A stretch of 64,000 nt of DNA from Escherichia coli. GTDB lineage: Bacteria > Pseudomonadota > Gammaproteobacteria > Enterobacterales > Enterobacteriaceae. This document shows positions 7,762 through 64,000 of the stretch, piece after piece (the first letter of the stretch is position 1; every line of letters begins with the position of its first letter). Made by a program: the position numbers and the translations under genes. The notes below the pieces were generated by a model. The model did not search any database, had not been told where the DNA came from, and saw only the letters and a list, made by a program, of their open reading frames with translations. The DNA is taken from assembly GCF_044324875.1 (NCBI RefSeq), contig NZ_CP172185.1, one strand, 5' to 3'.

Positions 7762-8967
7762 TTACGCCGCTGCAATCTTCAGCAGTTTGATGGCCTGCGA
7801 ATCGACCAGCATCCCGCCGGTGCGCTTGGTGGTATAAAAACCGACAAACGGTTTATTGGTGTACGGGTCACGCAGAATGCGGGTGCCGATACGGTCAACG
7901 ATGGTGTAACCCCGTTTGAAGTTACCAAATGCAATGGCTTTCGCATCAGCGGCGATATCCGGCATCTGTTCGTTTTCAGCGATACCGTAACCCGCCAGAG
8001 AGGACGGCTGCCCCAGTTCCAGCCCCGGACGCCACAGATAGTTACCCTCGGTGTCTTTCAGCAGACGGATGGCAAACAGGCTGTTGTTGTTCATCATGAA
8101 CTTCGCGCCAGTGCGGTGTGCCTTACGCAGCGTGTAAATCAGTTTGATAATGGCGTCTGCGGTCACCGCCGTCGCTTCGCCGGATACAATATGCTGAAGT
8201 TTGCCGAACGCCCGGACCTTATCGGTTTCATCAGTGGATTCATACGCCAGGAACCCTTTCGGCTTCTTGGTACCATCGCCGGTGGTAAAGGCAATTTCTT
8301 CCTGTTCGGCAAATTCGGTTGCCAGCTCGCTGTTGATCCATGCTTCCACGTTGAAAAAGGCATCATCCAGCATTTTCTGGGTAGCCTGCGGGTTACCGTA
8401 GATTTCCCCCATGAAAGGTTCAATCAGTCCCAGTTTTGAGGTGGCAGTCTGGGAGCGCGCGTCAGTCTCGCCAACCCATCCGGAAGCCGTGCCGCCCAGA
8501 TTCACCAGTTTTTTGTAGTCGGAACCGCCAACGGTGATCACCGTGGCTTCCTGGCGCATCACCACTTCATCTTTCAGCAGGGTAAGAATGTTGCGATCCA
8601 GTGCTTCCGGCACGGCATAGCCGCCGTCTTCATCGGTGCCCACCTGTAATGCCTTGCGCTCCAGATCGCGCAGACCATCTTCACGGCCTTTACGCAGGAA
8701 GCCCACAAACGCTTCTTTATGCTCGGTGGCCAGTTTATTTTGCGCACCACCTGCCGGACGTTTCAGCTCAAGAAGCTCTTTTTCAAGATCGCTTTTGAGG
8801 TTTTCCAGCTCGCTGAGTTTCCCGTTCAGGGTTTCCACCTGCCCGGCAAGTTTGCCTTTTTCCTGCTCAATCGCATCCACGCGCTTGTCGTTCTTTGCTT
8901 TGAAGTCGTCAAACTTCTGCTGCAGCTCCTGCGCGACCTGTTCGACATCTTTAATATCAACCGCCAT
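7762..8967 (-). CDS. Major capsid protein, HK97 family
   Basis: 401-aa ORF with coiled-coil N-terminal delta domain then HK97-fold region; follows prohead protease. Confidence 0.85.
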   Translation of the reverse strand: MAVDIKDVEQVAQELQQKFDDFKAKNDKRVDAIEQEKGKLAGQVETLNGKLSELENLKSDLEKELLELKRPAGGAQNKLATEHKEAFVGFLRKGREDGLRDLERKALQVGTDEDGGYAVPEALDRNILTLLKDEVVMRQEATVITVGGSDYKKLVNLGGTASGWVGETDARSQTATSKLGLIEPFMGEIYGNPQATQKMLDDAFFNVEAWINSELATEFAEQEEIAFTTGDGTKKPKGFLAYESTDETDKVRAFGKLQHIVSGEATAVTADAIIKLIYTLRKAHRTGAKFMMNNNSLFAIRLLKDTEGNYLWRPGLELGQPSSLAGYGIAENEQMPDIAADAKAIAFGNFKRGYTIVDRIGTRILRDPYTNKPFVGFYTTKRTGGMLVDSQAIKLLKIAAA

Positions 8968-16755: not shown

Positions 16756-17277
16756 ATGATGAACAAATTAGCACGCTTATTATTAACAGCCAGCTCAATT
16801 GCACCTGTTTGCGCAACTCTATTTTTTATTGGATATGTAAAAGATACGGTTTGGCTGATGCAATATAGCTTATGCGTTGGCATAGCAAGTTGGTTATTAG
16901 CAATAGGCCTGATTCAATATGCTGAGAAACAACTTGAACCTCTGACAAAAAATATTAGTTCAGTTTCTCCCGCTAACAAAGAAGTAACTAATTATTTCTT
17001 AAGCTATTTATTCCCTCTCCTAGGAACAGATTCTATTGCTGAAAATAAAGCATATGCGTTATTCTTTTATTTATCATTGTTATTTTACATCAGCTTTTCC
17101 GAGAACTATAACTTTAACCCAGTATTGTCACTTATCGGTTATAAATTTTACGAAGCTGAAGATGACACCGGCGTAGGTTTTGTATTGATTTCTAAATCAG
17201 TTATTACTGATATTAAAGATATCAAATTTACAGTTATTCAATTAACAGACTACACATTTCTACATGTTAAAGGATAA
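16756..17277 (+). CDS. Multi-pass membrane protein, first gene of AT-rich cargo cassette
   Basis: 173-aa ORF with 3-4 hydrophobic helices, AAGGA ribosome-binding site, opposite strand to flanking late genes. Confidence 0.6.
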   Translation: MMNKLARLLLTASSIAPVCATLFFIGYVKDTVWLMQYSLCVGIASWLLAIGLIQYAEKQLEPLTKNISSVSPANKEVTNYFLSYLFPLLGTDSIAENKAYALFFYLSLLFYISFSENYNFNPVLSLIGYKFYEAEDDTGVGFVLISKSVITDIKDIKFTVIQLTDYTFLHVKG

Positions 17278-17282
17278 TAACC

Positions 17283-18167
17283 ATGGCACTTTTTGCAGTA
17301 ATAGATAATACAATTGCAACGAGAATTGTTAGAGTCGAACTTGATGCAACAGCAAGTACTTCTGTTACGGCCATTTTCCAACAACAGCGTCAATATTTTG
17401 AAAGTCATCATAACAATATGATACCATTCTATGCCGGTTATACACCAAAACATAGTGAGTGTTTTGAAATACAAAACTTTACTGATTCTGCACGCCTGAT
17501 TGACGCAGTCAATAGGCCTACCGCCGTGCCTATCTGGGATCCTAGCCAAATTGATATTGGTTATATTAAAGCATTATTTGTTGGTGTTGACGCGCCAGCA
17601 AACCCCAATATTATTGCACTACAAACTTTCAACAAAAAACAAATCTTAGATACCTCAAAATCATTCTTTGGAAAGCTTTTTGCAAGCAAAACTACCTTTA
17701 GTAAAGCTAATAGCATCGGTTTTAATGTTGATGATAAACTAGTTGCAATAATTATCAATGATACAATACGATTTAAGAGTTTCTTTAATCTAAGAAGCAT
17801 TTTTGACATGTCGTCCTATTTTTCTGCTGCTACTGACCAAGAACTTAATGCATTTAGTCAACTTAGTGTATTTTCTACTCCCCAAGGTTTTGATCTAAAA
17901 TCCGTTGCAGATACAGTGATAAGAAATAAAGTAACACTAATAAATCAGACTGGGATGCTAACACCCCAAAATATGTCAAAGTTTAAATCCGAAGCTGCTA
18001 AAGTTAATTTCCCCTTACAAACCATAATAGTTGGCGGTGTTGAGAAAATTGTCATGCCTTCATCAAAAAAAGAAATAAAAGCCCTTCTTGACTTTCTTGA
18101 GGAAGACATTTGGGTTTCTGGAATAAGTGGAAGACGCTTTAAATCGAATTCAAAGCGCCCAATATAA
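17283..18167 (+). CDS. Hypothetical soluble protein, second gene of cargo cassette
   Basis: 294-aa ORF starting 5 nt after the preceding stop with its own AAAGGA ribosome-binding site; AT-rich. Confidence 0.6.
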   Translation: MALFAVIDNTIATRIVRVELDATASTSVTAIFQQQRQYFESHHNNMIPFYAGYTPKHSECFEIQNFTDSARLIDAVNRPTAVPIWDPSQIDIGYIKALFVGVDAPANPNIIALQTFNKKQILDTSKSFFGKLFASKTTFSKANSIGFNVDDKLVAIIINDTIRFKSFFNLRSIFDMSSYFSAATDQELNAFSQLSVFSTPQGFDLKSVADTVIRNKVTLINQTGMLTPQNMSKFKSEAAKVNFPLQTIIVGGVEKIVMPSSKKEIKALLDFLEEDIWVSGISGRRFKSNSKRPI

Positions 18168-20381: not shown

Positions 20382-20757
20382 CCGCCGTTTTCTCGTACTT
20401 ACTGATGGTGATCTCGACCTTCCCTTTCGGGATAACCGGTCCCCACTCCACCAGCATTCTTTTCACCTGTCTGTCGTCTTCCCACACACCCGCGTGGGTC
20501 AACGCGTCAAACAGCGCCTTGTTATAGTTGTCCAGATCGCGGATCCGGTTATCCGGAGGAAACAACACGATCTCCACTGAAGCAGGTGCCGACGTTGGTT
20601 TTGGCAGACGACGTAACTGCTCAACTATTGCTGCGCACGCCGCGCTCTGAAATTTTCGCCCCGCCGCGCTTATCAGGCTCTTACCAGCAAATGCCCCTTT
20701 GTTGGGGTGTCGCCAGTACGTGTTCACGCTGGGCGGGAAAGGCAGGATCAGCTTCAT
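20368..20757 (-). CDS. rusA: Holliday junction resolvase RusA
   Basis: 129-aa ORF with RusA-like sequence in the ninR-equivalent region. Confidence 0.85.
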   Translation of the reverse strand: MKLILPFPPSVNTYWRHPNKGAFAGKSLISAAGRKFQSAACAAIVEQLRRLPKPTSAPASVEIVLFPPDNRIRDLDNYNKALFDALTHAGVWEDDRQVKRMLVEWGPVIPKGKVEITISKYEKTAGAAA

Positions 20758-21080
20758 ACTTTCAGGCCTCTCTCATGTAACCAGTGGGTTGCACGCAGCC
20801 TGGCGTTTTCCTCACCGGCAAGCAGTGAGCGGATAATCCCGACCGCCTCGCTGTCGTCGTCCTTCACCGCGGTATGAAGAGTGATACCCCGGGCCACGCC
20901 ACGCTTTATCGTGATGACGCCTTTTTTCTCCAGTGCGCGAAGATGTTCCACCGCTGCATTCACTGAACGGTATCCCAGCATGGTTGCCACCTCCTGATTG
21001 GTTGGCGGGAAGCCACGTTCTTTCTGGTAAGAAATCAGCATATCCAGCACCTGCTGCTGGCATTGAGTTAACGTCGTCAT
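20754..21080 (-). CDS. LexA DNA-binding-domain-like protein lacking peptidase domain
   Basis: 108-aa ORF aligning by eye to the LexA N-terminal winged helix (QQQVLDML...GFPPT..E.A..LGYRS.NAA.EHL.AL.KKGVI). Confidence 0.6.
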   Translation of the reverse strand: MTTLTQCQQQVLDMLISYQKERGFPPTNQEVATMLGYRSVNAAVEHLRALEKKGVITIKRGVARGITLHTAVKDDDSEAVGIIRSLLAGEENARLRATHWLHERGLKV

Positions 21081-21729
21081 GCCGCCATCTCCCTGACCAG
21101 TTTTTCCGCCTGCTGGCGAACCTGCGCCAGAAACGCCTCACCACATGCCTCAAGTTCATCGCGCCCGATGTAGCTGATTGCCGGTCCCTTCCAGGTCTTG
21201 TCGAAAACAGCAATAGCACCAGCGAAGAAAGCGCCTGTCGGCACCTGCTTCTCGTCCTTCGGTATAAACCAGGCAGGCAGTTCAAAACCAATACGCCCGC
21301 GAATAAAAGCAATATGATCTGCATCTTCCGGCCACCACACTTCGCTGGTGGCCGCTTTGATCAGGAAAACATAGCGCCCGCCCTTATCACGCATGGCACT
21401 GGCATGTTTCATGATGTAACGCATGCCGGTGATGTATTGCCCCTCATGCTGACTGGCGCGGCTGTATGGGGATTACCAAAGGCAGCACCTTTAAGCTCCG
21501 CAAGACGTTCTGACCAGTCATGCGCCAGCGCGTTATCTTCCGCCGTGTAATACGCGGCACATTTGGCGTTATCACCGTCAGTAAACAGATCCAGAACAAA
21601 CGGGCCAAACAGTGTGTTAATTCCCCAGAAAATGTTGTCCGGCGTGCGCCACTGATCGCCCACTTCCTTCAGTTCATGGGCTGGTTTGTTCCGCAGTTCC
21701 ACCAGTGCCTGACAATATTTATTACTCAT
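21077..21729 (-). pseudogene. Phage DNA N6-adenine methyltransferase (Dam family) split by a 1-nt frameshift
   Basis: ORFs 21409-21762 and 21077-21424 together match the Dam family (WRTPD...NAKC..YYT...FGNP); frame breaks in a G4 run at 21469-21472 exactly at the NPPY motif. Confidence 0.7.
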
Positions 21730-22223
21730 TAAGCCCCCACGTAATTCCCTGACAGATACCACTCTTCACCCGATGCTGCGCGCTTGCTGCTTTTCTGTAA
21801 GCACTGCTCACGACGCGCCAGAAAATTGTTTCGTTCTGGCTGGGAGTGGCTTTCACGGAATGCCGCCATCCACACCGTTGCAGCACGACGGTATAAGCCC
21901 CTGGACTCCAGTTCTTCAGCCTGGCGGGTCAGGCACAAAATCACCCGGGGATCGTTAGTGCCGACATAGAAATTGCGCACAGGTCTAGTTTCACGAACTG
22001 GTTGTGGTTCCGGCTCCTGCGCTCTCTCAGTCAGGCGCGGGAAATGTCTGCGTGTATCTCCTTCACAACGGTGAGCCACACGCCCACTCTGACGTAACTT
22101 GCTTGCTGACTGCAGAACGCGCTGTCGTGAGTAACCTGCAAAAGCATCCGCAATGTCTCCGGAAGTACACCCCGGATGGGCTTCAATGAATTTCTGAACT
22201 TCATTCAAAAGACTCATAATCAC
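21729..22223 (-). CDS. Phage early protein, putative regulator
   Basis: 164-aa ORF whose stop overlaps the Dam start (TAATG). Confidence 0.4.
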   Translation of the reverse strand: MIMSLLNEVQKFIEAHPGCTSGDIADAFAGYSRQRVLQSASKLRQSGRVAHRCEGDTRRHFPRLTERAQEPEPQPVRETRPVRNFYVGTNDPRVILCLTRQAEELESRGLYRRAATVWMAAFRESHSQPERNNFLARREQCLQKSSKRAASGEEWYLSGNYVGA

Positions 22224-23161
22224 CCCCTGAATCCTGCCGGGATCTGGCTGTAGTCCACGTTGTCGTAACTGGCTTTGAAGTACGGGTCTTCGCGTTTTTC
22301 TGTGTGCGTGCTGACGGACGGCGATAAGCGCAGGGAAAGCTCATCCCATTTTTCCCGCAACTTCGACGGGCTGAGCACGTTACGGCACCAGAACGGATCG
22401 CGGCTGACGCGGCTGTACATCTCGCAGATTTGTTTGTGAGTACGACCATCCTGCACACACATCAGGCGAATTTCGTTTGCCCAGGCTGTCCAGTTAGGTT
22501 CTTTGGGACGAACCACCTCGCCGTCACATTCGGCGGCCTGCTCGTACAGGGCGATGATTTTTTTCCAGAGCCACTGTGCGCAGGTCAAATCATCCTGCGT
22601 TCCCCACTGGCGCTTTTTAGGGCTGAATACAACCGCATCAGGATGGCGAGTTAAAAAATCCTGTTCATCCATCTGCGTGTCCGGTTGCGAAGCGTCCGGA
22701 CGAGAAGGTTTTTTATCTGATGGATCATGTTTTGATTTTACTGACGGATCCCCGCCAGATTCTGACGGGTGAAAACCCGCTTTTTTGCCAGATTTCGACG
22801 CATCAAATTTTGACGGGTCAGATTTTGATGCGTCAGATTTTGACGGGTCAGAATCTGACAGTTGAGAAAATGCCGCTGCCTGAAGCTTCGCAACGTTAAG
22901 CTGATAAACATTCGACGCATTGCGGTTACCCTGGCGACGCGCCTTACGCGTTAACCAGCCTTCTGCTTCCAGCCGTGCGATAGCCGTTCTGACGGTACTC
23001 ATCCCCGCGCCAATCTGGCGGGCAATGGTTTCAATTGATGGCCAGCACACACCTTCGTCATTACTGAAATCAGCCAGGCGGGCCATAATTGCCACGCTGG
23101 ATAATTTCATGCCTGACGCAGCGCAACCATCCCATACATAGCCGGTTAATTTAGTGCTCAT
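22220..23161 (-). CDS. Replication initiation protein, O-like with N-terminal HTH
   Basis: 313-aa ORF with HTH near the N-terminus and an internal iteron-encoded repeat, in the O position. Confidence 0.65.
   Translation of the reverse strand: MSTKLTGYVWDGCAASGMKLSSVAIMARLADFSNDEGVCWPSIETIARQIGAGMSTVRTAIARLEAEGWLTRKARRQGNRNASNVYQLNVAKLQAAAFSQLSDSDPSKSDASKSDPSKFDASKSGKKAGFHPSESGGDPSVKSKHDPSDKKPSRPDASQPDTQMDEQDFLTRHPDAVVFSPKKRQWGTQDDLTCAQWLWKKIIALYEQAAECDGEVVRPKEPNWTAWANEIRLMCVQDGRTHKQICEMYSRVSRDPFWCRNVLSPSKLREKWDELSLRLSPSVSTHTEKREDPYFKASYDNVDYSQIPAGFRG
22762..22860. repeat. Iteron array (putative phage origin) inside the O-like gene
   Basis: About six direct repeats of a 12-15 bp unit related to GATTTTGACGGG. 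Confidence 0.5.
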
Positions 23162-23509
23162 GACCGACCTCTATTTCCCTGAATTTACGACGAAACTGTT
23201 CGAGCGGACTGAAGCATTCATGCTCATAGCCTTCGCGGAGGTAGATAACCCGTTGTGTTTCCGGCTCCCAACGAATGACTCTGACGGGCACTCCGTAGTG
23301 ATCTTTGAACCAGCGGTTAACTTGTCGCAAAGGACTGTCTCCTTCTGCCGGTTGAAATCACCCACAGCCCACTCTGCAAAGCTGTGGGTTACAATTTCCC
23401 TGTCACCTAGTACATTCACTGCATAGCAATATTCCACCTTCGCTTTTCCACCCGGTACAGGAAGCGCAATCAGTTGCGAGCGACGGTAGTGTGTTGTTAA
23501 ACTGTTCAT
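23151..23509 (-). pseudogene. Small early gene upstream of O, apparently frameshifted (or two overlapping short ORFs)
   Basis: Protein-like N-terminal half in one frame and protein-like C-terminal half (...[23 protein letters not shown]...) in the -1 frame ending at the O start; junction near 23325-23350. Confidence 0.35.
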
Positions 23510-24075
23510 GCGTTAGTTTCTCCACAACCAGAAGCAATCGACGCCACGACGCCCGGAGCTGCACACTCGCGGGCGTCATTACTTTCTGAAATGCAAAAAA
23601 TTTTGTAGACAAGTGCTGCATGCTCCTGCAGCTTCGAAATTGAGAGATACAGCTCGTCGTTAATTGCTGTCTTCTCATGCGGTTCCACTACACCGTCTTC
23701 GATTGCTGAACGAATCTGTTTTGAATAACTGCCGATCTGTTCAATGACTTCCAGCAGACGCTGGTTAATATCGGCGTTGTCCACATCCTCGACGTCAGGA
23801 AGAGACACAAAGACGCCATTTGCAGACTGCGCCACAGCATCAGCAATGAAATGAGTGCCACCAGCACGCTGTAAAACCATTGCCCATCCCAGCGGGAAAA
23901 TCTGATCGCCATCTGCACGAAGGCGGTTGAATAAAGCGTTTTCTGTTACATCGAGCCAGTCAGCCGCTTCAGCGTAACCACCCGGCAACGCCGCGATAGT
24001 TTTTCTGACAGCTTTCACGTACCACTCAGGCTGTTTTTCTATTTTCCAGTGATGCTTACCCACGATTAGCCTCAT
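23506..24075 (-). CDS. Putative CII-like early regulatory protein
   Basis: 189-aa ORF in the cII-equivalent position directly downstream of cro; position-based. Confidence 0.35.
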
Positions 24076-24106
24076 CGTTCTGTGGTTAAAAATTGAAAGT
24101 GTTCTG

Positions 24107-24310
24107 CTAATCTTTCGGATAGATATCCGGTCTTAAGTCAGATTTCGTAATTGCACCTGACGTGCATTGCTCAAGTTTTTTAGCCAGCACAAAACTGGCT
24201 TTTTTATAGCCATTGAAAACCAGCCGTAAGTAGCCAGGTGTTGAGCCAACTTTTCCGGCCAACTCGCCCTGCTGTTCTTTGGTTAAAGAGTCCCAATACG
24301 CTTTCATACA
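24107..24310 (-). CDS. Cro-like repressor (YdaS/Cro family HTH)
   Basis: 67-aa product from Met 24310 with C-terminal DLRPDIYP-like motif; the listed longer ORF reads through the operator region. Confidence 0.7.
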   Translation of the reverse strand, partial: CMKAYWDSLTKEQQGELAGKVGSTPGYLRLVFNGYKKASFVLAKKLEQCTSGAITKSDLRPDIYPKD

Positions 24311-55028: not shown

Positions 55029-56073
55029 TTATCCACGTAGTGTAGCCGCAAAATCCAGCATACGATTGAGCGGCACCAGCGCCCTCTCTCGCAGCCTTTC
55101 CTCAACATGAACCTCGTGGATTGCTTCCTTCCTGTTCTAATGCCTCTGCGATGGCCTGAAGGCCATTCATGGCCATCCACGGACAATGCGCGCAGCTGCG
55201 GCAGGTTGCGCCCTCACCCGCGGTTGGTGCTTCCAGTAACTCTTTATCTGGTACCGCCTGCTGCATTTTGTAGAAAATACCCCGATCGGTTGCCACGATA
55301 AGTCGCTGATGTGGCAATGTTTTCGCAGCAGCAATCAGTTGACTGGTGGAACCGACCGCATCCGCCATCTCTACAATAGCTTGCGGTGATTCTGGATGCA
55401 CCAGTATGGCAGCATCCGGGTATTCTTCTTGCAAGCGGGTTAACGCCTGAGTCTTAAACTCATCATGCACAATGCAGGCACCCTGCCAGCATAAAATGTC
55501 TGCGCCCGTCTGTTTTTGCACGTAACGCCCCAGATGTTTGTCGGGTGCCCAGATGATTTTTTCACCCAAACTATCCAGATGATCAATAAGTTCGACGGCA
55601 ATGCTTGAAGTTATCACCCAATCTGCCCGCGCTTTTACCGCAGCAGAAGTGTTGGCGTAGACGACGACAGTATGATCGGGATGGGCATCGCAAAATGCGT
55701 TAAATTCTTCAACTGGGCAGCCGAGATCCAGTGAACATTCAGCCTGAAGTGTCGGCATCAGAATTGTTTTTTCCGGACTGAGAATTTTGGCGGTTTCTCC
55801 CATAAATCTCACCCCAGCGACTAACAACGTAGAAGCGGGATGCTTTGCACCGAAGCGCGCCATTTCCAGAGAATCAGAAATACAGCCACCGGTTTCTTCT
55901 GCCAGTTGTTGAATTTCGGGATCGGTATAGTAGTGGGCAACCATCACCGCATTACGTTCTTTTAGCAGACGTTTTATCTTCTCGCGGTAATACACTTTTT
56001 CATCAATGCTTAACGGCGTCGGCTTCGGGGGGAAAGGATAAATCGCCGTGTCTGGATCAAACATCACGCTCAT
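55029..56073 (-). pseudogene. nadA: Quinolinate synthase NadA with 1-nt insertion near 3' end (C-terminal frameshift)
   Basis: ORF 55102-56073 gives 323 aa ending ...[11 protein letters not shown]; deleting one C at about 55118-55119 restores ...[30 protein letters not shown] ending at 55029 (347 aa). Confidence 0.7.
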
Positions 56074-56163: not shown

Positions 56164-56319
56164 AGATAGTCGAATGGTGGGGAAAAGTCACTCGAATTAC
56201 GTATGAGATGACGAATGCCACACTTTGCGTCTTATTCCTCCGACGTAGAGTTGTTTACGCAGCAAGCGCGGAGTATGTCATCAGGGTTAAGAATTGAAAT
56301 TGAGAGATGCCTGAATAGC

Positions 56320-56347
56320 AAAAAAGCGCCTTTAGGGCGCTTTTTTA
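56320..56347. terminator. Bidirectional intrinsic terminator after lysQ
   Basis: A-run, GCGCC-ttta-GGCGC hairpin, T-run. Confidence 0.6.
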
Positions 56348-56350
56348 CAT

Positions 56351-56426
56351 TGGTGGGTCGTGCAGGATTCGAACCTGCGACCAATTGATTAAAAGTCAAC
56401 TGCTCTACCAACTGAGCTAACGACCC
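56351..56426 (-). tRNA. lysQ: tRNA-Lys (UUU)
   Basis: Reverse complement is a 76-nt tRNA-Lys with CCA end; position 7 of the lysT operon. Confidence 0.95.
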
Positions 56427-56459
56427 CTTGCGGGATTATGCTGCTTTAATCATTCAGGA

Positions 56460-56535
56460 TGGTGGGTCGTGCAGGATTCGAACCTGCGACCAATTGATTA
56501 AAAGTCAACTGCTCTACCAACTGAGCTAACGACCC
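56460..56535 (-). tRNA. lysZ: tRNA-Lys (UUU)
   Basis: Identical 76-nt tRNA-Lys copy. Confidence 0.95.
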
Positions 56536-56583
56536 ATACGGGTGTTACCTGAAAGATTTCTACTCGGAACCAATCTTTAAAAT

Positions 56584-56600
56584 TGGTGGGTCGTGCAGGA
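56584..56600 (-). repeat. tRNA-Lys 3'-end fragment at start of a ~70-bp spacer repeat
   Basis: TGGTGGGTCGTGCAGGA then diverges; the spacer recurs at 57077-57150. Confidence 0.5.
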
Positions 56601-56681
56601 TGACTCGCTTCGCTCGCCCTACGGGCCGTTGCTGGCGCAACGTTATCCTTCACGCTTAACATCTGAGTTTGATGTTAAAAT

Positions 56682-56757
56682 TGGTGGGTCGTGCAGGATT
56701 CGAACCTGCGACCAATTGATTAAAAGTCAACTGCTCTACCAACTGAGCTAACGACCC
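56682..56757 (-). tRNA. lysY: tRNA-Lys (UUU)
   Basis: 76-nt tRNA-Lys. Confidence 0.95.
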
Positions 56758-56760
56758 GAG

Positions 56761-56836
56761 TGGTGGGTGATGACGGGATCGAACCGCCGACCCCCTCCTT
56801 GTAAGGGAGGTGCTCTCCCAGCTGAGCTAATCACCC
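56761..56836 (-). tRNA. valZ: tRNA-Val (UAC)
   Basis: Reverse complement GGGTGATTAGCTCAGCTGGGAGAGCACCTCCCTTACAAGGAGG...CCA. Confidence 0.95.
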
Positions 56837-56887
56837 GATACTGCGCTGGATACTACAAACTACTTCCACCGAACCCACCGTAATTAG

Positions 56888-56963
56888 TGGTGGGTCGTGC
56901 AGGATTCGAACCTGCGACCAATTGATTAAAAGTCAACTGCTCTACCAACTGAGCTAACGACCC
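56888..56963 (-). tRNA. lysW: tRNA-Lys (UUU)
   Basis: 76-nt tRNA-Lys. Confidence 0.95.
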
Positions 56964-56965
56964 GG

Positions 56966-57041
56966 TGGTGGGTGATGACGGGATCGAACCGCCGACCCCC
57001 TCCTTGTAAGGGAGGTGCTCTCCCAGCTGAGCTAATCACCC
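56966..57041 (-). tRNA. valT: tRNA-Val (UAC)
   Basis: 76-nt tRNA-Val. Confidence 0.95.
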
Positions 57042-57076
57042 GATACTACGCTGGATACTACAACTAACTAGGTTAG

Positions 57077-57093
57077 TGGTGGATCGTGCAGGA
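57077..57093 (-). repeat. Second tRNA 3'-end fragment with spacer repeat
   Basis: TGGTGGATCGTGCAGGA followed by the same ~55-nt spacer as at 56601. Confidence 0.5.
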
Positions 57094-57176
57094 TGACTCG
57101 ACTTCGTCTCGCCCTTCGGGCCGTTGCTGATGCAACGTTATCCTTCACGTTTTACTACCGCTTCCACCTTAGCGAT

Positions 57177-57252
57177 TGGTGGGTCGTGCAGGATTCGAAC
57201 CTGCGACCAATTGATTAAAAGTCAACTGCTCTACCAACTGAGCTAACGACCC
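57177..57252 (-). tRNA. lysT: tRNA-Lys (UUU)
   Basis: 76-nt tRNA-Lys, first gene of the operon. Confidence 0.95.
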
Positions 57253-57415
57253 ACTTTTCGTTGCTTTCGGGTTGTTTGATATCCCGTGGCAACGGCGGCA
57301 TATATTACTGATTTCAGACTTGAGCGCAACAAAAATTTCGATGCAGATCACTCAACTGCTTATGATTCGCACGACACGACCAGAAATAATGCGACTTCTG
57401 GTCGTGTGTTATGCA

Positions 57416-58207
57416 TTACATCGCGTTCAGACGTTTTTGCGCCTGTTTAGCGCCATCAGTACCAGGATATTTACTGATAACCTGCTGGTATACGGCTTTC
57501 GCTTTTGCGGTGTCACCTTTGTCCTGCATGATGACGCCGACTTTAAACATCGCATCTGCAGCCTTTGGTGACTTCGGATAGTTTTTCACTACCGAAGCAA
57601 AATAGTACGCCGCATCATCTTTTTTACCCTTGTTGTAGTTTAACTGACCCAGCCAATAATTGGCGTTTGGCAGGTAAGTTGAATCAGGGTAATTTTTGAT
57701 GAAATTCTGAAATGCCACCATTGCGTCATCCTGGCGGGATTTATCCTGCACCAGCGCAATAGCTGCATTGTAATCCGTGTTTGCATCACCGCTTTTCACC
57801 GGCGCGCCAGCATTCGCAGTACCAGCATCAGCTGTCGGCGTCGTTGATGCCGCCGCACCGCTTTGATCGCCGCTGGTTGATTGCGCCGCTGCACCACCGC
57901 TGCTGAGGCTATCGATCTGCAACAGGATCTGCTTTTGCCGCTCCACGACCTGATTCAGTTGATACTGATTTTCCTGAATCTGACCACGCAGGGAATCAAT
58001 ATCGGATTGATTATCAGAGAGTTGTTGCTGGAGTTGGGTTAAAAGCTGGCTGTGAGCATTTGAAATACGCTCAAGTTGAGTGACGCGGTCTTCGACCGAG
58101 CCTGAGCCGACACTACTGATTGGTGCCTGAGCAAAAGCGGCCCAGGGGGCCGCTATACCAACCAGTAACGACAGACTCAATAGTTGATGTCTGAAGTTAC
58201 TGCTCAT
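57416..58207 (-). CDS. cpoB: Cell division coordinator CpoB (YbgF)
   Basis: 263-aa product with signal peptide, coiled coil and TPR region. Confidence 0.95.
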   Translation of the reverse strand: MSSNFRHQLLSLSLLVGIAAPWAAFAQAPISSVGSGSVEDRVTQLERISNAHSQLLTQLQQQLSDNQSDIDSLRGQIQENQYQLNQVVERQKQILLQIDSLSSGGAAAQSTSGDQSGAAASTTPTADAGTANAGAPVKSGDANTDYNAAIALVQDKSRQDDAMVAFQNFIKNYPDSTYLPNANYWLGQLNYNKGKKDDAAYYFASVVKNYPKSPKAADAMFKVGVIMQDKGDTAKAKAVYQQVISKYPGTDGAKQAQKRLNAM

Positions 58208-58216
58208 GCAATTCTC

Positions 58217-58762
<546 letters not shown>

Positions 58763-58772
58763 TTAATTATTA

Positions 58773-60065
58773 TCACAGATACGGCGACCAGGCAGGAAAT
58801 TTGACCTGTCCATCAGTTGCCGGAAGACGCGCTTTGAAACGCCCATCTGTAGAAACCAAATTCAGCACGGATCCCATCCCCTGAGAAGAGCTGTAGATTA
58901 CCATAGTGCCGTTAGGTGCCAGACTTGGCGTTTCATCCAGGAACGTGGACGACAGAACTTGTACGCCTCCCGTTGCCAGATCTTGTTTGGCAATGTGCTG
59001 CTGCCCACCATTGGAGCTGACCATTACCATAAATTTACCGTCGCTGCTGACATCCGCATCCTGGTTCTGCGAACCTTCCCAGGTAATACGTTGTGGCGCA
59101 CCGCCGTTGATATTCACTTTATAAACCTGTGGACGACCGGCCTGGTCAGAAGTAAATGCCAGGTTCTGGCTGTCCGGGAACCAGGTCGGTTCGGTATTGT
59201 TACTGCGACCATCCGTCACCTGGCGGATCTGACCAGAAGCCAAATCCATTACGTACAGGTTCAGACTACCGGTTTTCGACAAGGCGAATGCCAGTTTGCT
59301 GCCGTCTGGCGAGAATGCAGGTGCACCGTTGTGACGCGGGAACGAAGCCACCTGACGTACTGCGCCATTTGCCAGCGTTTGGATGACCAGCGCGGAACGA
59401 CCGCTTTCGAAGGTCACATAAGCCAGTTTAGAACCGTCTGGTGACCACGCCGGAGACATCAGCGGCTGCGGTGAACGGTGAACGACAAACTGGTTGTAAC
59501 CGTCATAGTCAGATACGCGCAGTTCATACGGGAACTGACCGCCGTTGGTCTGAACAACGTAGGCAATACGGGTACGGAACGCACCTTTAATGCCGGTCAG
59601 TTTTTCAAACACTTCATCACTGGCGGTATGACCAGCATAACGCAGCCACTGCTTGTTCACTTTGTACGAGTTCTGAGCAAGTACAGTACCCGGTGCGCCG
59701 CCAGTGTCAACAAGTTGATAAGCAACATTGTAAGAACCGTCCGGATTCGGAGTGACCTGGCCGACAACCACTGCGTCGATCCCCAGCGCAGACCATGCAG
59801 CTGGTTGTACTTCCTGCGCACTACCCGGCTGCTGTGGCAGACGAGCGCGATCTAACGGATTAAATTTACCGCTGTTACGCAAGTCAGCAGCAACGATACC
59901 GCCAATATCTTCAGGTGCCGCACCAGGACCCGCCCACTGGAAAGGAACAACGCCAATAGGACGACCGGAATCTACACCGCTGTCGATCACAATGCGGACT
60001 TCAGCATGCAGAACTGATGCCCACAGTATGAGAAAACCAAATGCTACTCGTAATGCCTGCTTCAT
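58773..60065 (-). CDS. tolB: Tol-Pal system periplasmic protein TolB
   Basis: 430-aa product from [14 protein letters not shown]. Confidence 0.95.
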
Positions 60066-60197
60066 CATATCTCCCTTATCTGGACCGATGGCCCACGATA
60101 ATTTAGCAGAATGTTAACAAACTAAAATACACAAAACTACCAGAACCCCGTGGCAACCGGTGCCTGATGTTGACCGTCGGAACAGTCAACATCGCGA

Positions 60198-61463
60198 TTA
60201 CGGTTTGAAGTCCAATGGCGCGTTTTTGAACACTTCATATACTGCCTGGCTTGGTGGTTTCGGGATCTTCGCAAGTTTAGCTGCTGCCAACGCAGCCTGA
60301 CAAAGTGCGGGATCGCCACCTTCAGGTTTGATATCCAGTAACATACCATCGGGTGCCAGTTTTATGCGCAGCGTACAGGTTTTGCCTGCATAGGACGATG
60401 CGTCATAGAACTTACTTTCGATAGCAGATTTAATCTGCCCGGCATAGTTATTGATATCGGCCCCTGATGCGCCATTGTTTTTAGTATTACCACTCCCGGC
60501 TGGCGAAGCATTGTTCCCTTTCGCCCCTCCCCCCGTTTTCGGTGCATTCTTACCAGAGCTTAGCTCACCGAAAATATCATCTGCCTCTGCGGCCGCTTTT
60601 GCTGCAGCGGCTTTTTCAGCTGCTGCTTTTGCAGCTGCCGCTTTTTTGTCTGCGGCGGCTTTTTCTGCCGCTGCTTTCTTATCAGCTGCTGCCTTTTCAG
60701 CAGCCGCTTTTTCTGCTGCTTTTTTGTCGGCTGCAGCTTTCTCTGCTGCCGCTTTCTTATCAGCTGCAGCCTTTTCAGCAGCCGCTTTCTTCTCAGCTTC
60801 TGCCTTGGCTTTTTCAGCAGCTTCAGTTGCCGCTTTCTTTCTTGCTTCAGCTGCAGCTGCTTCTGCCGCTTCCGCTTTCTTCTTCAGTGCCGCCGCGGCT
60901 GCCTCGGCTTTTTTCTGCGCTTCGGCTGCGGCTTTGGCGGCTTCTGCTTCTGCTTTTTTCTTCGCGTCTGCAGCCGCTTTCTTCGCAGCTTCTTCCGCAG
61001 CTTTAGCATCCGCTTCGGCCTTCGCTTTAGCATCTGCCGCCGCTTTCGCTGCCGCCTCTTCCGCTTGCTTCTGCTTTAACTCGGCCTGTTTTGCGGCTTC
61101 TTCAGCCTGCTTTTTCTGCTCCTGAGCCGCTAACCGCTCTTTCTCAAGTTGCTTCAGGCGTTCCTGTTCAGCCGCTTGTTTCTCACGCAGTTCTTCAGCA
61201 GCCTGCTGTTCCTTCATCTTGCGCTGCTCATCAGAACGCTTCGCGCTTGATTCCTGGCTTTGCATGCGTTTGTACTGCTCAACTACCGCACCTGAATCAA
61301 CCATGACAGCGTCGATGGACGAACCACCGCCGCCTCCGGCTGAAGCTTCTATATTCTCATCGAACGAACTCCAGATCAGCGCCGCAAATAAGATGACATG
61401 CAGCACTGCTGAAATAATTATCGCCCGCTTGAGCTTGTCGTTTTGTTCGGTTGCCTTTGACAC
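60198..61463 (-). CDS. tolA: Tol-Pal system protein TolA
   Basis: 421-aa product with Ala/Lys/Glu-rich repetitive helical domain. Confidence 0.95.
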   Translation of the reverse strand: MSKATEQNDKLKRAIIISAVLHVILFAALIWSSFDENIEASAGGGGGSSIDAVMVDSGAVVEQYKRMQSQESSAKRSDEQRKMKEQQAAEELREKQAAEQERLKQLEKERLAAQEQKKQAEEAAKQAELKQKQAEEAAAKAAADAKAKAEADAKAAEEAAKKAAADAKKKAEAEAAKAAAEAQKKAEAAAAALKKKAEAAEAAAAEARKKAATEAAEKAKAEAEKKAAAEKAAADKKAAAEKAAADKKAAEKAAAEKAAADKKAAAEKAAADKKAAAAKAAAEKAAAAKAAAEADDIFGELSSGKNAPKTGGGAKGNNASPAGSGNTKNNGASGADINNYAGQIKSAIESKFYDASSYAGKTCTLRIKLAPDGMLLDIKPEGGDPALCQAALAAAKLAKIPKPPSQAVYEVFKNAPLDFKP

Positions 61464-61527
61464 TCTCGGTTTCCAAAAACTGTTCGCCTGTTACCCGCTC
61501 TCTTTCAAGCAAGGGAAACGCAGATGT

Positions 61528-61956
61528 TTAGATAGGCTGCGTCATTAAACCAACCGATTTCACACCCGCACTATGTAACAAGTTCAGTGCTTTAATTATT
61601 TCATCGTAAGGCACATCTTTTGCGCCACCGATCAGAAAGACCGTTTTCGGGTTGGCCTTGAAACGGCTGGACACTTCCGCCACCACCTGCTCTGGTGGTA
61701 AACGCTCCAGGCGATCTTTCTCAACCACCACGGTGTACTGACCAATACCAGACACTTCAACAATCACTGGCGGATTATCGTTACTGCTCACCGCCTGTGA
61801 TTCAGTAGCGTCTGGCAGATCGACCTCCACGCTCTGGGTGATGATGGGCGCTGTCGCCATAAAGATCAGCAACAGCACCAGCAGTACGTCCAGCAACGGT
61901 ACAATGTTGATTTCGGACTTGAGATCGCGACGACCTCGTCCACGCGCTCTGGCCAT
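61528..61956 (-). CDS. tolR: Tol-Pal system protein TolR
   Basis: 142-aa product. Confidence 0.95.
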   Translation of the reverse strand: MARARGRGRRDLKSEINIVPLLDVLLVLLLIFMATAPIITQSVEVDLPDATESQAVSSNDNPPVIVEVSGIGQYTVVVEKDRLERLPPEQVVAEVSSRFKANPKTVFLIGGAKDVPYDEIIKALNLLHSAGVKSVGLMTQPI

Positions 61957-61959
61957 GGC

Positions 61960-63053
<1,094 letters not shown>

Positions 63054-63151
63054 TTTACATCCCGGTAATGCAACAAAAGTTAGAGCTTTTAAACGCTGCT
63101 ACTATACGCGCGCGATTGAGGTTTGGGAATGAGGGCAAGTTAAGGGAGCGT

Positions 63152-63187
63152 AAAAATTTATGGGCCTGGAGCGGCCCATAATTTTTT
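63152..63187. terminator. Bidirectional intrinsic terminator after ybgE
   Basis: A-run, TGGGCC-tggagc-GGCCCA hairpin, T-run. Confidence 0.55.
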
Positions 63188-63202
63188 AAAGAGAATTCTG
63201 AT

Positions 63203-63496
63203 TTAAAAGAAGAAGAAAATCAGCCCGACAATGAGAACAATATCGGCAAGCAATGGGCAAAAAATCCCTTGCCAAAGAACCTTCTGCGGACGAAAGCCCA
63301 CGCCGTGAATCACACCAGCACAGACGGCCCACATCAGCAATAAACCATGCCAGATTTCCAGTTCACTGGTCTTCGCGGCGAAACGTGATGGGTCCCAAAA
63401 CATACATCCTGCTAACAGAAGCGCCATCACGAAGGAAAGCGCCCGCAGGGGGCGCTTGTCCATTACCGCATACAAGGTTGCGATAATCTTACTCAT
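63203..63496 (-). CDS. ybgE: Small membrane protein YbgE
   Basis: 97-aa membrane product. Confidence 0.9.
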   Translation of the reverse strand: MSKIIATLYAVMDKRPLRALSFVMALLLAGCMFWDPSRFAAKTSELEIWHGLLLMWAVCAGVIHGVGFRPQKVLWQGIFCPLLADIVLIVGLIFFFF

Positions 63497-63609
63497 CAGA
63501 TGTCTTCTTGACCGGCTTTGCCTGATTCGACGTGCTCAAGCGCCAGCGCGGTGATTACCCCAAACGAACAGGCAAGAAGCGTTCCCAGAATCCATGCGAA
63601 ATACCACAT
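63496..63609 (-). CDS. cydX: Cytochrome bd-I accessory subunit CydX
   Basis: 37-aa product MWYFAWILGTLLACSFGVITALALEHVESGKAGQEDI; stop overlaps ybgE start. Confidence 0.85.
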   Translation of the reverse strand: MWYFAWILGTLLACSFGVITALALEHVESGKAGQEDI

Positions 63610-63623
63610 TTTTAGCTCCTTAC

Positions 63624-64000
63624 TTAGTACAGAGAGTGGGTGTTACGTTCAATATCTTCTTTGGTGATACGACCGAACATTTTCCAGTAACACCAGGCGG
63701 TGTAGAGCAGAATGATCGGTACCAGAACCACCGCAACCCAGGTCATGACGTTAAGTGTCAGCTGGCTGGAAGTTGCATCCCACATTGTCAGACTTGCGTT
63801 CATCATGGTGCTGGACGGCATCACAAACGGGAACATTGCGATACCGGCAGTCAGGATGATGCAGGCCAGCGTCAGGGAGGAGAACACAAACGCCCACGCG
63901 GCTTTATCCATACGTGCAGTCAGGATGGTCAGCAGCGGCAGAACCACACCCAGTGCCGGAATAGCCCACAGAATTGGCGTGTTGTTGAAGTTTACCAGCC
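63624..64000 (-). CDS. cydB: Cytochrome bd-I ubiquinol oxidase subunit II, 3' part (continues beyond window)
   Basis: C-terminal sequence ...YTAWCYWKMFGRITKEDIERNTHSLY; frame stays open to the window edge. Confidence 0.9.
   Translation of the reverse strand, partial: LVNFNNTPILWAIPALGVVLPLLTILTARMDKAAWAFVFSSLTLACIILTAGIAMFPFVMPSSTMMNASLTMWDATSSQLTLNVMTWVAVVLVPIILLYTAWCYWKMFGRITKEDIERNTHSLY

Follow-up and report, generated by a model that had tools for sequence, protein, structure and literature searches.

The gene analysed here lies in a window of 64,000 nucleotides of Escherichia coli (contig NZ_CP172185.1 of assembly GCF_044324875.1), which contains a lambdoid-type prophage with a contractile-tail late region, inserted beside ybhC. 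The genes of its early-right operon follow the order replication gene, perC/yfdN, methyltransferase, lexA-like, rusA, kilA-N, DUF968 and Q, which means that the methyltransferase gene, located between the replication/perC genes and the lexA-like/rusA/Q genes, is indeed a prophage gene, as a preliminary description of this DNA had proposed. It extends over positions 21077-21729 of the minus strand, from an ATG at 21729-21727 to a TGA at 21079-21077, and its length of 653 nt is not a multiple of three, being one nucleotide short of the 654 nt (217 aa) of the ancestral form. Upstream, the stop codon of the perC/yfdN-family gene (PF06069; 21729-22223, minus strand) overlaps the ATG of the methyltransferase gene as TAATG (21727-21731). 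Downstream, the ATG of the gene for a protein with a LexA N-terminal domain (20754-21080, minus strand) overlaps the methyltransferase stop codon as ATGA, from which we conclude that these genes are translationally coupled. A scan for promoters and terminators across positions 20700-24200 detected neither a promoter-like site nor any remarkable feature on the coding strand.

The window does not contain a single uninterrupted methyltransferase ORF of about 217 aa. Instead, the gene is divided into two overlapping ORFs on the minus strand. The N-terminal ORF (21409-21729) codes for 106 aa and a stop and ends with ...AAFGNPHTAAPVSMRGNTSPACVTS, a C-terminal end that is also quoted as ...KGAAFGNPHTAAPVSMRGNTSPACVTS; it consists of 87 native residues (through N86-P87) followed by 19 out-of-frame residues (HTAAPVSMRGNTSPACVTS). 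The C-terminal ORF (21077-21424) is read in the original frame and codes for 115 aa from Met103 (start MRYIMKHAS) or for 111 aa from Met107, and both forms are called by gene callers in other assemblies. The ATG of Met107 (21412-21410) overlaps the TGA of the upstream ORF (21411-21409), here too as ATGA. The frame breaks in a run of four C on the coding strand (four G on the plus strand), which has five in relatives and marks the site of a 1-nt deletion. The preliminary description had located the break in a four-G run at 21469-21472; the run is as described, but its coordinates are 21468-21471, one base further to the left. It is part of the remnant of the catalytic-motif codons (21464-21474, minus strand), in which AAT CCC CAT AC, translated as N-P-H-T, takes the place of the ancestral AAT CCC CCA TAC for N-P-P-Y. 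Thus, the loss does fall inside the codons of the family-invariant NPPY motif, where it had been suspected. Inserting one base into the run generates an ORF of 654 nt and 217 aa, which reads ...AAFGNPPYSRASQHEGQYITGMRYIMKHAS... and contains FGNPPYSRAS, the motif that one added G had been expected to restore, and the exact sequence of this repaired protein was found on at least 1000 public contigs. Within the gene, the ancestral C5 run ranks among the two longest homopolymers.

The N-terminal half matches positions 3-68 of the Pfam model PF05869 (E=4e-21, 75.8 bits) and the C-terminal half positions 73-167 (E=1.5e-16, 61 bits). Two halves that match consecutive stretches of one model are beyond chance, and the adjacent ORFs therefore reconstitute one methyltransferase, in agreement with the earlier claim. 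The same holds for its assignment to the phage-type N6-adenine methyltransferases (Dam family), because the repaired protein scores far above the respective cut-offs, with 156 bits on PF05869 ("Dam"; cut-off 28.1) and 255.6 bits on the NCBIfam equivalog TIGR01712, "phage N-6-adenine-methyltransferase" (cut-off 97.05). An AlphaFold model of the repaired protein (pLDDT 88.4) was closest to N6-adenine methyltransferases in a fold comparison, which points to the catalytic fold of these enzymes; a search by sequence for a solved structure of any relative found none.

The (D/N)PPY motif has an established role in N6-adenine methyltransferases. In an alignment of 12 homologues with 28-100% identity, including those of Staphylococcus and Lactococcus phages, N86, P87, P88 and Y89 are invariant. 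The window encodes N-P-H-T at this place, and an intact (D/N)PPY tetrapeptide is restored only by one extra base. From this we conclude that the locus represents a pseudogene of the PF05869/TIGR01712 family and not a working member. Pro88, Tyr89 and residues 90-102 are encoded by neither of the two ORFs, so that no active enzyme is to be expected, even from both fragments together. Based on the invariance of NPPY and the established role of (D/N)PPY, the enzyme would be dead.

Of the 5426 complete E. coli genomes, 2649 carry close copies of the methyltransferase gene, and so do 50 phage records, among them SfV, SfII, mEp460 and several Stx2 phages; more distant family members were found in 587 phage records from many hosts. 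Intact homologues in a single ORF occur across genera. The nearest intact relative is that of E. coli PMV-1, for which the only differences from positions 21000-21800 of the window (801 nt) are the G that the window lacks and a single synonymous SNP, and the best full-length E. coli matches listed cover 802 nt versus the 801 nt of the query. In the alignment with the window, both PMV-1 and PEC41 show GGGGG at the run, and the repaired protein and the methyltransferase of phage PhiR40_1 have the same sequence (100% identity). The known gene (WP_000066917.1 of PMV-1, "dam" of Shigella phage SfV, and its counterpart in PhiR40_1) occupies the same place in the prophage, in the order perC - dam - lexA-like - rusA, with a nucleotide identity of 97-99.8% between the intact gene and the window copy. 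Unlike the genes of PMV-1, SfV and PhiR40_1, however, the window copy is one C:G pair short in the NPPY codons and can no longer code for the complete protein. The comparison with related prophages, which had been recommended as a check, hence revealed that intact relatives carry five G and that four assemblies of the prophage lineage, described below, share the four-G allele. Judging from these alignments, five G is the ancestral and four G the derived state. An intact five-G copy of the same prophage lineage was sought in the complete genomes; none was found, and the nearest prophages there are only about 97% identical.

Three possibilities had been put forward for the break, namely an inactivated gene, a sequencing or assembly error, and a slippage-prone tract. 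Our results support the first, speak against the second and agree with the third only in a trivial sense, since a C5 run is simply the likeliest place for a spontaneous frameshift. We consider it very likely that the locus is a genuine, vertically inherited pseudogene, which would have originated from the loss of one C:G pair in the C5 run of the NPPY codons. The main evidence comes from four further assemblies, all of which carry the four-G allele. L006 (GCA_029450875.1) aligns to positions 11409-31729 of the window with 2 mismatches and 0 gaps in 20,321 nt, and L009 (GCA_902839305.1) shows 12 mismatches to the window, without gaps. L012 (GCA_965643075.1) has the early region in common with the window, with 17 mismatches and 0 gaps over 11.4 kb, and differs from it in the cargo between Q and the lysis genes, while L014 (GCA_000176615.2) is a further prophage variant, in which rusA and kilA-N are deleted. 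Three of the four prophages adjoin ybhC, as does that of the window, and in L006, PF05869 is the sole Pfam family that is split across two adjacent genes. The same or a mosaic prophage with the identical allele, and without other indels, is therefore found in at least four independent assemblies. A random error would not be shared by four separate assemblies whose sequences are otherwise in agreement base by base, so we conclude that the four-G allele is real. In the public collection, 75 blocks list the exact 106-aa frameshift product (P0001). The gene is free of extra degenerative mutations, which is expected of a young pseudogene and is no positive proof of relaxed selection.

An assembly or base-calling error, according to which the gene is intact, with five G in the true genome, and the run was under-called, appears improbable to us. 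C5/G5 runs are classic under-call sites, and in several of the deletion-bearing assemblies at least 20 indels per 6 kb separate the sequence from that of the window. Moreover, SCU-482, which is one of only two complete genomes with the four-G allele, has five other frameshifted genes adjoining, and the window itself contains a second frameshift, in nadA. However, the four assemblies of the prophage lineage share the allele without any other indel over 11-20 kb, although they derive from distinct strains or prophage variants, which are 2 to 17 SNPs apart and differ in their late-region cargo. A systematic homopolymer error is unlikely as well, because other runs would be affected too, yet 45 other G/C runs and 233 A/T runs of at least 5 are preserved in the window without gene breakage. 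With 31 of the 32 chromosomal genes checked in the window at full length, nadA being the exception, the window is free of general homopolymer undercalling. The nadA frameshift was first read as a sign of poor assembly; this reading was rejected because 32 draft contigs carry the exact truncated NadA, and the change (G to GG) lies outside a homopolymer, so that this frameshift is also real.

The four-G allele was counted with an 80-nt query centred on the run. In the complete E. coli genomes, which contain about 1720 full-length copies, exact matches were obtained for two, those of FORC_031 and SCU-482, and among the full-coverage matches listed, all others show one difference and span 81 nt; in the phage records carrying this segment the allele was found in 0 of 40. 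The two copies are annotated by RefSeq as "phage N-6-adenine-methyltransferase, frameshifted" (FORC31_RS29365 in FORC_031, HHJ51_RS26055 in SCU-482) and have the same 80-mer and break point as the window, and the 106-aa N-terminal product of FORC_031 is identical to that of the window. The haplotypes nevertheless differ from the window, with about 98% identity in the gene, and the FORC_031 copy is located in a decayed prophage remnant at another site. In SCU-482 (L004 19648-22874), a "complete" genome, five consecutive early-region prophage genes as well as the methyltransferase gene are all annotated as frameshifted. This cluster looks like a local patch of consensus errors, and the four-G allele of SCU-482 should therefore not be counted as independent biological evidence.

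In total, the same 1-nt loss was observed on at least eight other haplotypes of the methyltransferase gene. One haplotype group shows CCCCG in place of CCCCA after the deletion (product ...NPRTAAP...), which implies that the four-G allele arose, or was mis-called, more than once. Much of this recurrence sits in error-prone assemblies: compared to the window, 22-24 gap openings were counted over 5.9 kb in L007, L008 and L010 and 11 over 3.8 kb in L011, and L016 carries a second deletion inside the methyltransferase gene itself. Clean-looking contexts for the same deletion are those of L017 and FORC_031. A C5 run is the expected place for spontaneous slippage and for under-calling alike.

Two further copies are disrupted in other ways. 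E. coli PEC41 (L002 3078-3730) has an independent frameshift of the same gene, CC to C, at the position corresponding to 21649 of the window, which is annotated by RefSeq and shows that the gene decays by several routes. YfdM of K-12, which is encoded in the cryptic prophage CPS-53 (L033 MG1655 8113-8388, minus strand, 91 aa), is 100% identical to the repaired protein over residues 1-89, and its gene adjoins yfdN (perC family), like the window gene. In contrast to the latter, yfdM was cut by a large CPS-53 deletion with its junction just after the Tyr codon of NPPY, whereas the C5 run is intact and without the 1-nt frameshift; that this junction lies a few bases from the C5 run is probably a coincidence.

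A functional role of the broken run, either as a site of recoding, in which a -1 shift on CCC_C rebuilds N-P-P-Y ("compensated indel"), or as a phase-variable C-run switch, is in our view very improbable. Its recurrence on at least eight haplotypes, some of them clean (L017, FORC_031), would be in line with either. As regards a switch, phase-variable methyltransferases are characterized by a long simple-sequence tract with frequent length changes, and the tracts of contingency loci are far longer than 5 nt. The tract considered here has 5 nt, and 4 in the window, only these two lengths were seen, and the four-G state is fixed across diverged copies within the prophage lineage. As regards recoding, ribosomes that slip back by one nucleotide after CCC would continue with CCA UAC, which reconstitutes NPPY exactly, and low-level compensation of G-run indels is known from herpesvirus thymidine kinase (PMC5009743). 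However, programmed -1 frameshifting is defined by a slippery site of the form X_XXY_YYZ (PMC5009743), and the mRNA, GGU AAU CCC CAU ACA, contains no such heptamer, so that tandem re-pairing is impossible and the P-site tRNA would need to re-pair on UCC (PMC5009743). The identity of 99.7% to intact alleles that need no shift argues that nothing evolved to promote one, and for the same reason an RNA structure downstream of the run would carry no information on this point. In addition, the arrangement is not conserved among relatives, being present in about 0.1% of the complete-genome copies and in none of the 40 phages. Programmed frameshifting and transcriptional slippage were rejected on these grounds, i.e. 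the absence of a slippery heptamer, the shortness of the run and the lack of conservation. The locus does share with phase-variable methyltransferases and with the G7 run of herpesvirus thymidine kinase that a single-nucleotide change in a G/C run turns off an enzyme gene, but it differs from these systems in that the run is only 5 nt long and the off state is rare and lineage-bound. It has no slippery site and probably no stimulator, and the likeness is a resemblance only (PMC5009743). By analogy with such systems, the C5 run might act as a recurrent, possibly reversible on/off switch of a widespread prophage orphan Dam, with low-level -1 slippage supplying traces of the full-length enzyme, which we regard as highly doubtful. 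A split enzyme, in which the products of the two ORFs would be synthesized independently and join to form an active methyltransferase, has next to no probability: both halves keep significant family matches and the ATGA overlap could couple their translation, but neither product contains Pro88, Tyr89 or residues 90-102 (or 90-106), NPPY is invariant, and the split form is rare and derived.

For the pseudogene, the simplest and most likely cause would be replication slippage, by which one C:G pair may have been lost from the C5 run. The loss changed AAT CCC CCA TAC to AAT CCC CAT AC, and translation now proceeds through N-P-H-T and the 19 out-of-frame residues to a stop at TGA 21411-21409. The ATGA at Met107 could permit ribosome reinitiation and in this way limit polarity on the lexA-like gene, rusA, kilA-N, DUF968 and Q. 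The remainder of the prophage looks intact, from which we conclude that the loss of the methyltransferase is a tolerated decay event.

A possible reason for this tolerance lies in the specificity of the enzyme. Orphan methyltransferases of the M.EcoVT2Dam type, which are encoded by Stx2 phages, share the Pfam family with the window gene. Among these, orf32 of VT2-Sakai, which scores 218 bits and probably corresponds to M.EcoVT2Dam, has the same nin-region position as the window gene, and its NPPYS is aligned with that of the repaired protein; it differs in its identity of 31% over 144 residues only and in its length of 175 aa compared to 217. M.EcoVT2Dam was reported to methylate GATC (PMC6602927), which was the only such statement found in a literature search on this subfamily (yfdM, PF05869, T1/HP1 Dam). 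A GATC specificity of the repaired enzyme would be carried over from this family member of 31% identity. If the enzyme has that specificity, host Dam would cover GATC methylation, and the prophage enzyme would be redundant in E. coli, which could explain why the loss persists in an otherwise intact-looking prophage. Redundancy with host Dam together with reinitiation thus probably makes the loss tolerable.

We regard the locus as a case of ordinary prophage gene decay in a well-described phage methyltransferase family; frameshifted pseudogenes of this type have already been flagged by RefSeq in other genomes. The window copy should be labelled as a frameshifted pseudogene of phage N-6-adenine-methyltransferase and is of little importance beyond annotation. 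The prophage is not to be taken as a source of m6A methylation in the lysogen. The four-G allele and the nadA frameshift together provide a handy clonal marker for this E. coli/prophage lineage. Furthermore, the analysis illustrates that independent assemblies of the same lineage can tell a homopolymer frameshift from a sequencing error without resequencing.

Some additional observations were made in the prophage and in the adjoining chromosome. Between the gene for the Q antiterminator and the lysis genes, the prophage carries as cargo a Kiwa anti-phage defence pair, consisting of KwaA (16756-17277, plus strand, 173 aa, 277 bits) and KwaB (17283-18167, plus strand, 294 aa, 498 bits); the related prophage L012 has other cargo at the same place. 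The protein collection contains many PerC-Dam fusion proteins of about 380 aa (PF06069 and PF05869), one of them on 12 contigs, which suggests that perC stop loss or frameshifts occur recurrently at the 1-nt gene overlap.

In nadA, which codes for quinolinate synthase (55032-56073, minus strand), an extra G at 55118 changes GTGATT to GTGGATT and results in 323 aa instead of 347. This allele was found in 0 of the 4034 complete E. coli genomes with this segment, and the 32 contigs with the exact truncated NadA are distributed over 35 blocks and are all draft-sized, from which we conclude that the frameshift genuinely marks this clone. Like Shigella and EIEC, the lineage is probably auxotrophic for nicotinic acid. 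The segment with ybhC, gal and nadA (30965-56201) is only 98.8% identical to the best of the 5426 complete E. coli genomes, while the tol-pal segment (56315-63872) is 99.8% identical to that same genome, which suggests that a divergent or recombinant block adjoins the insertion site of the prophage.
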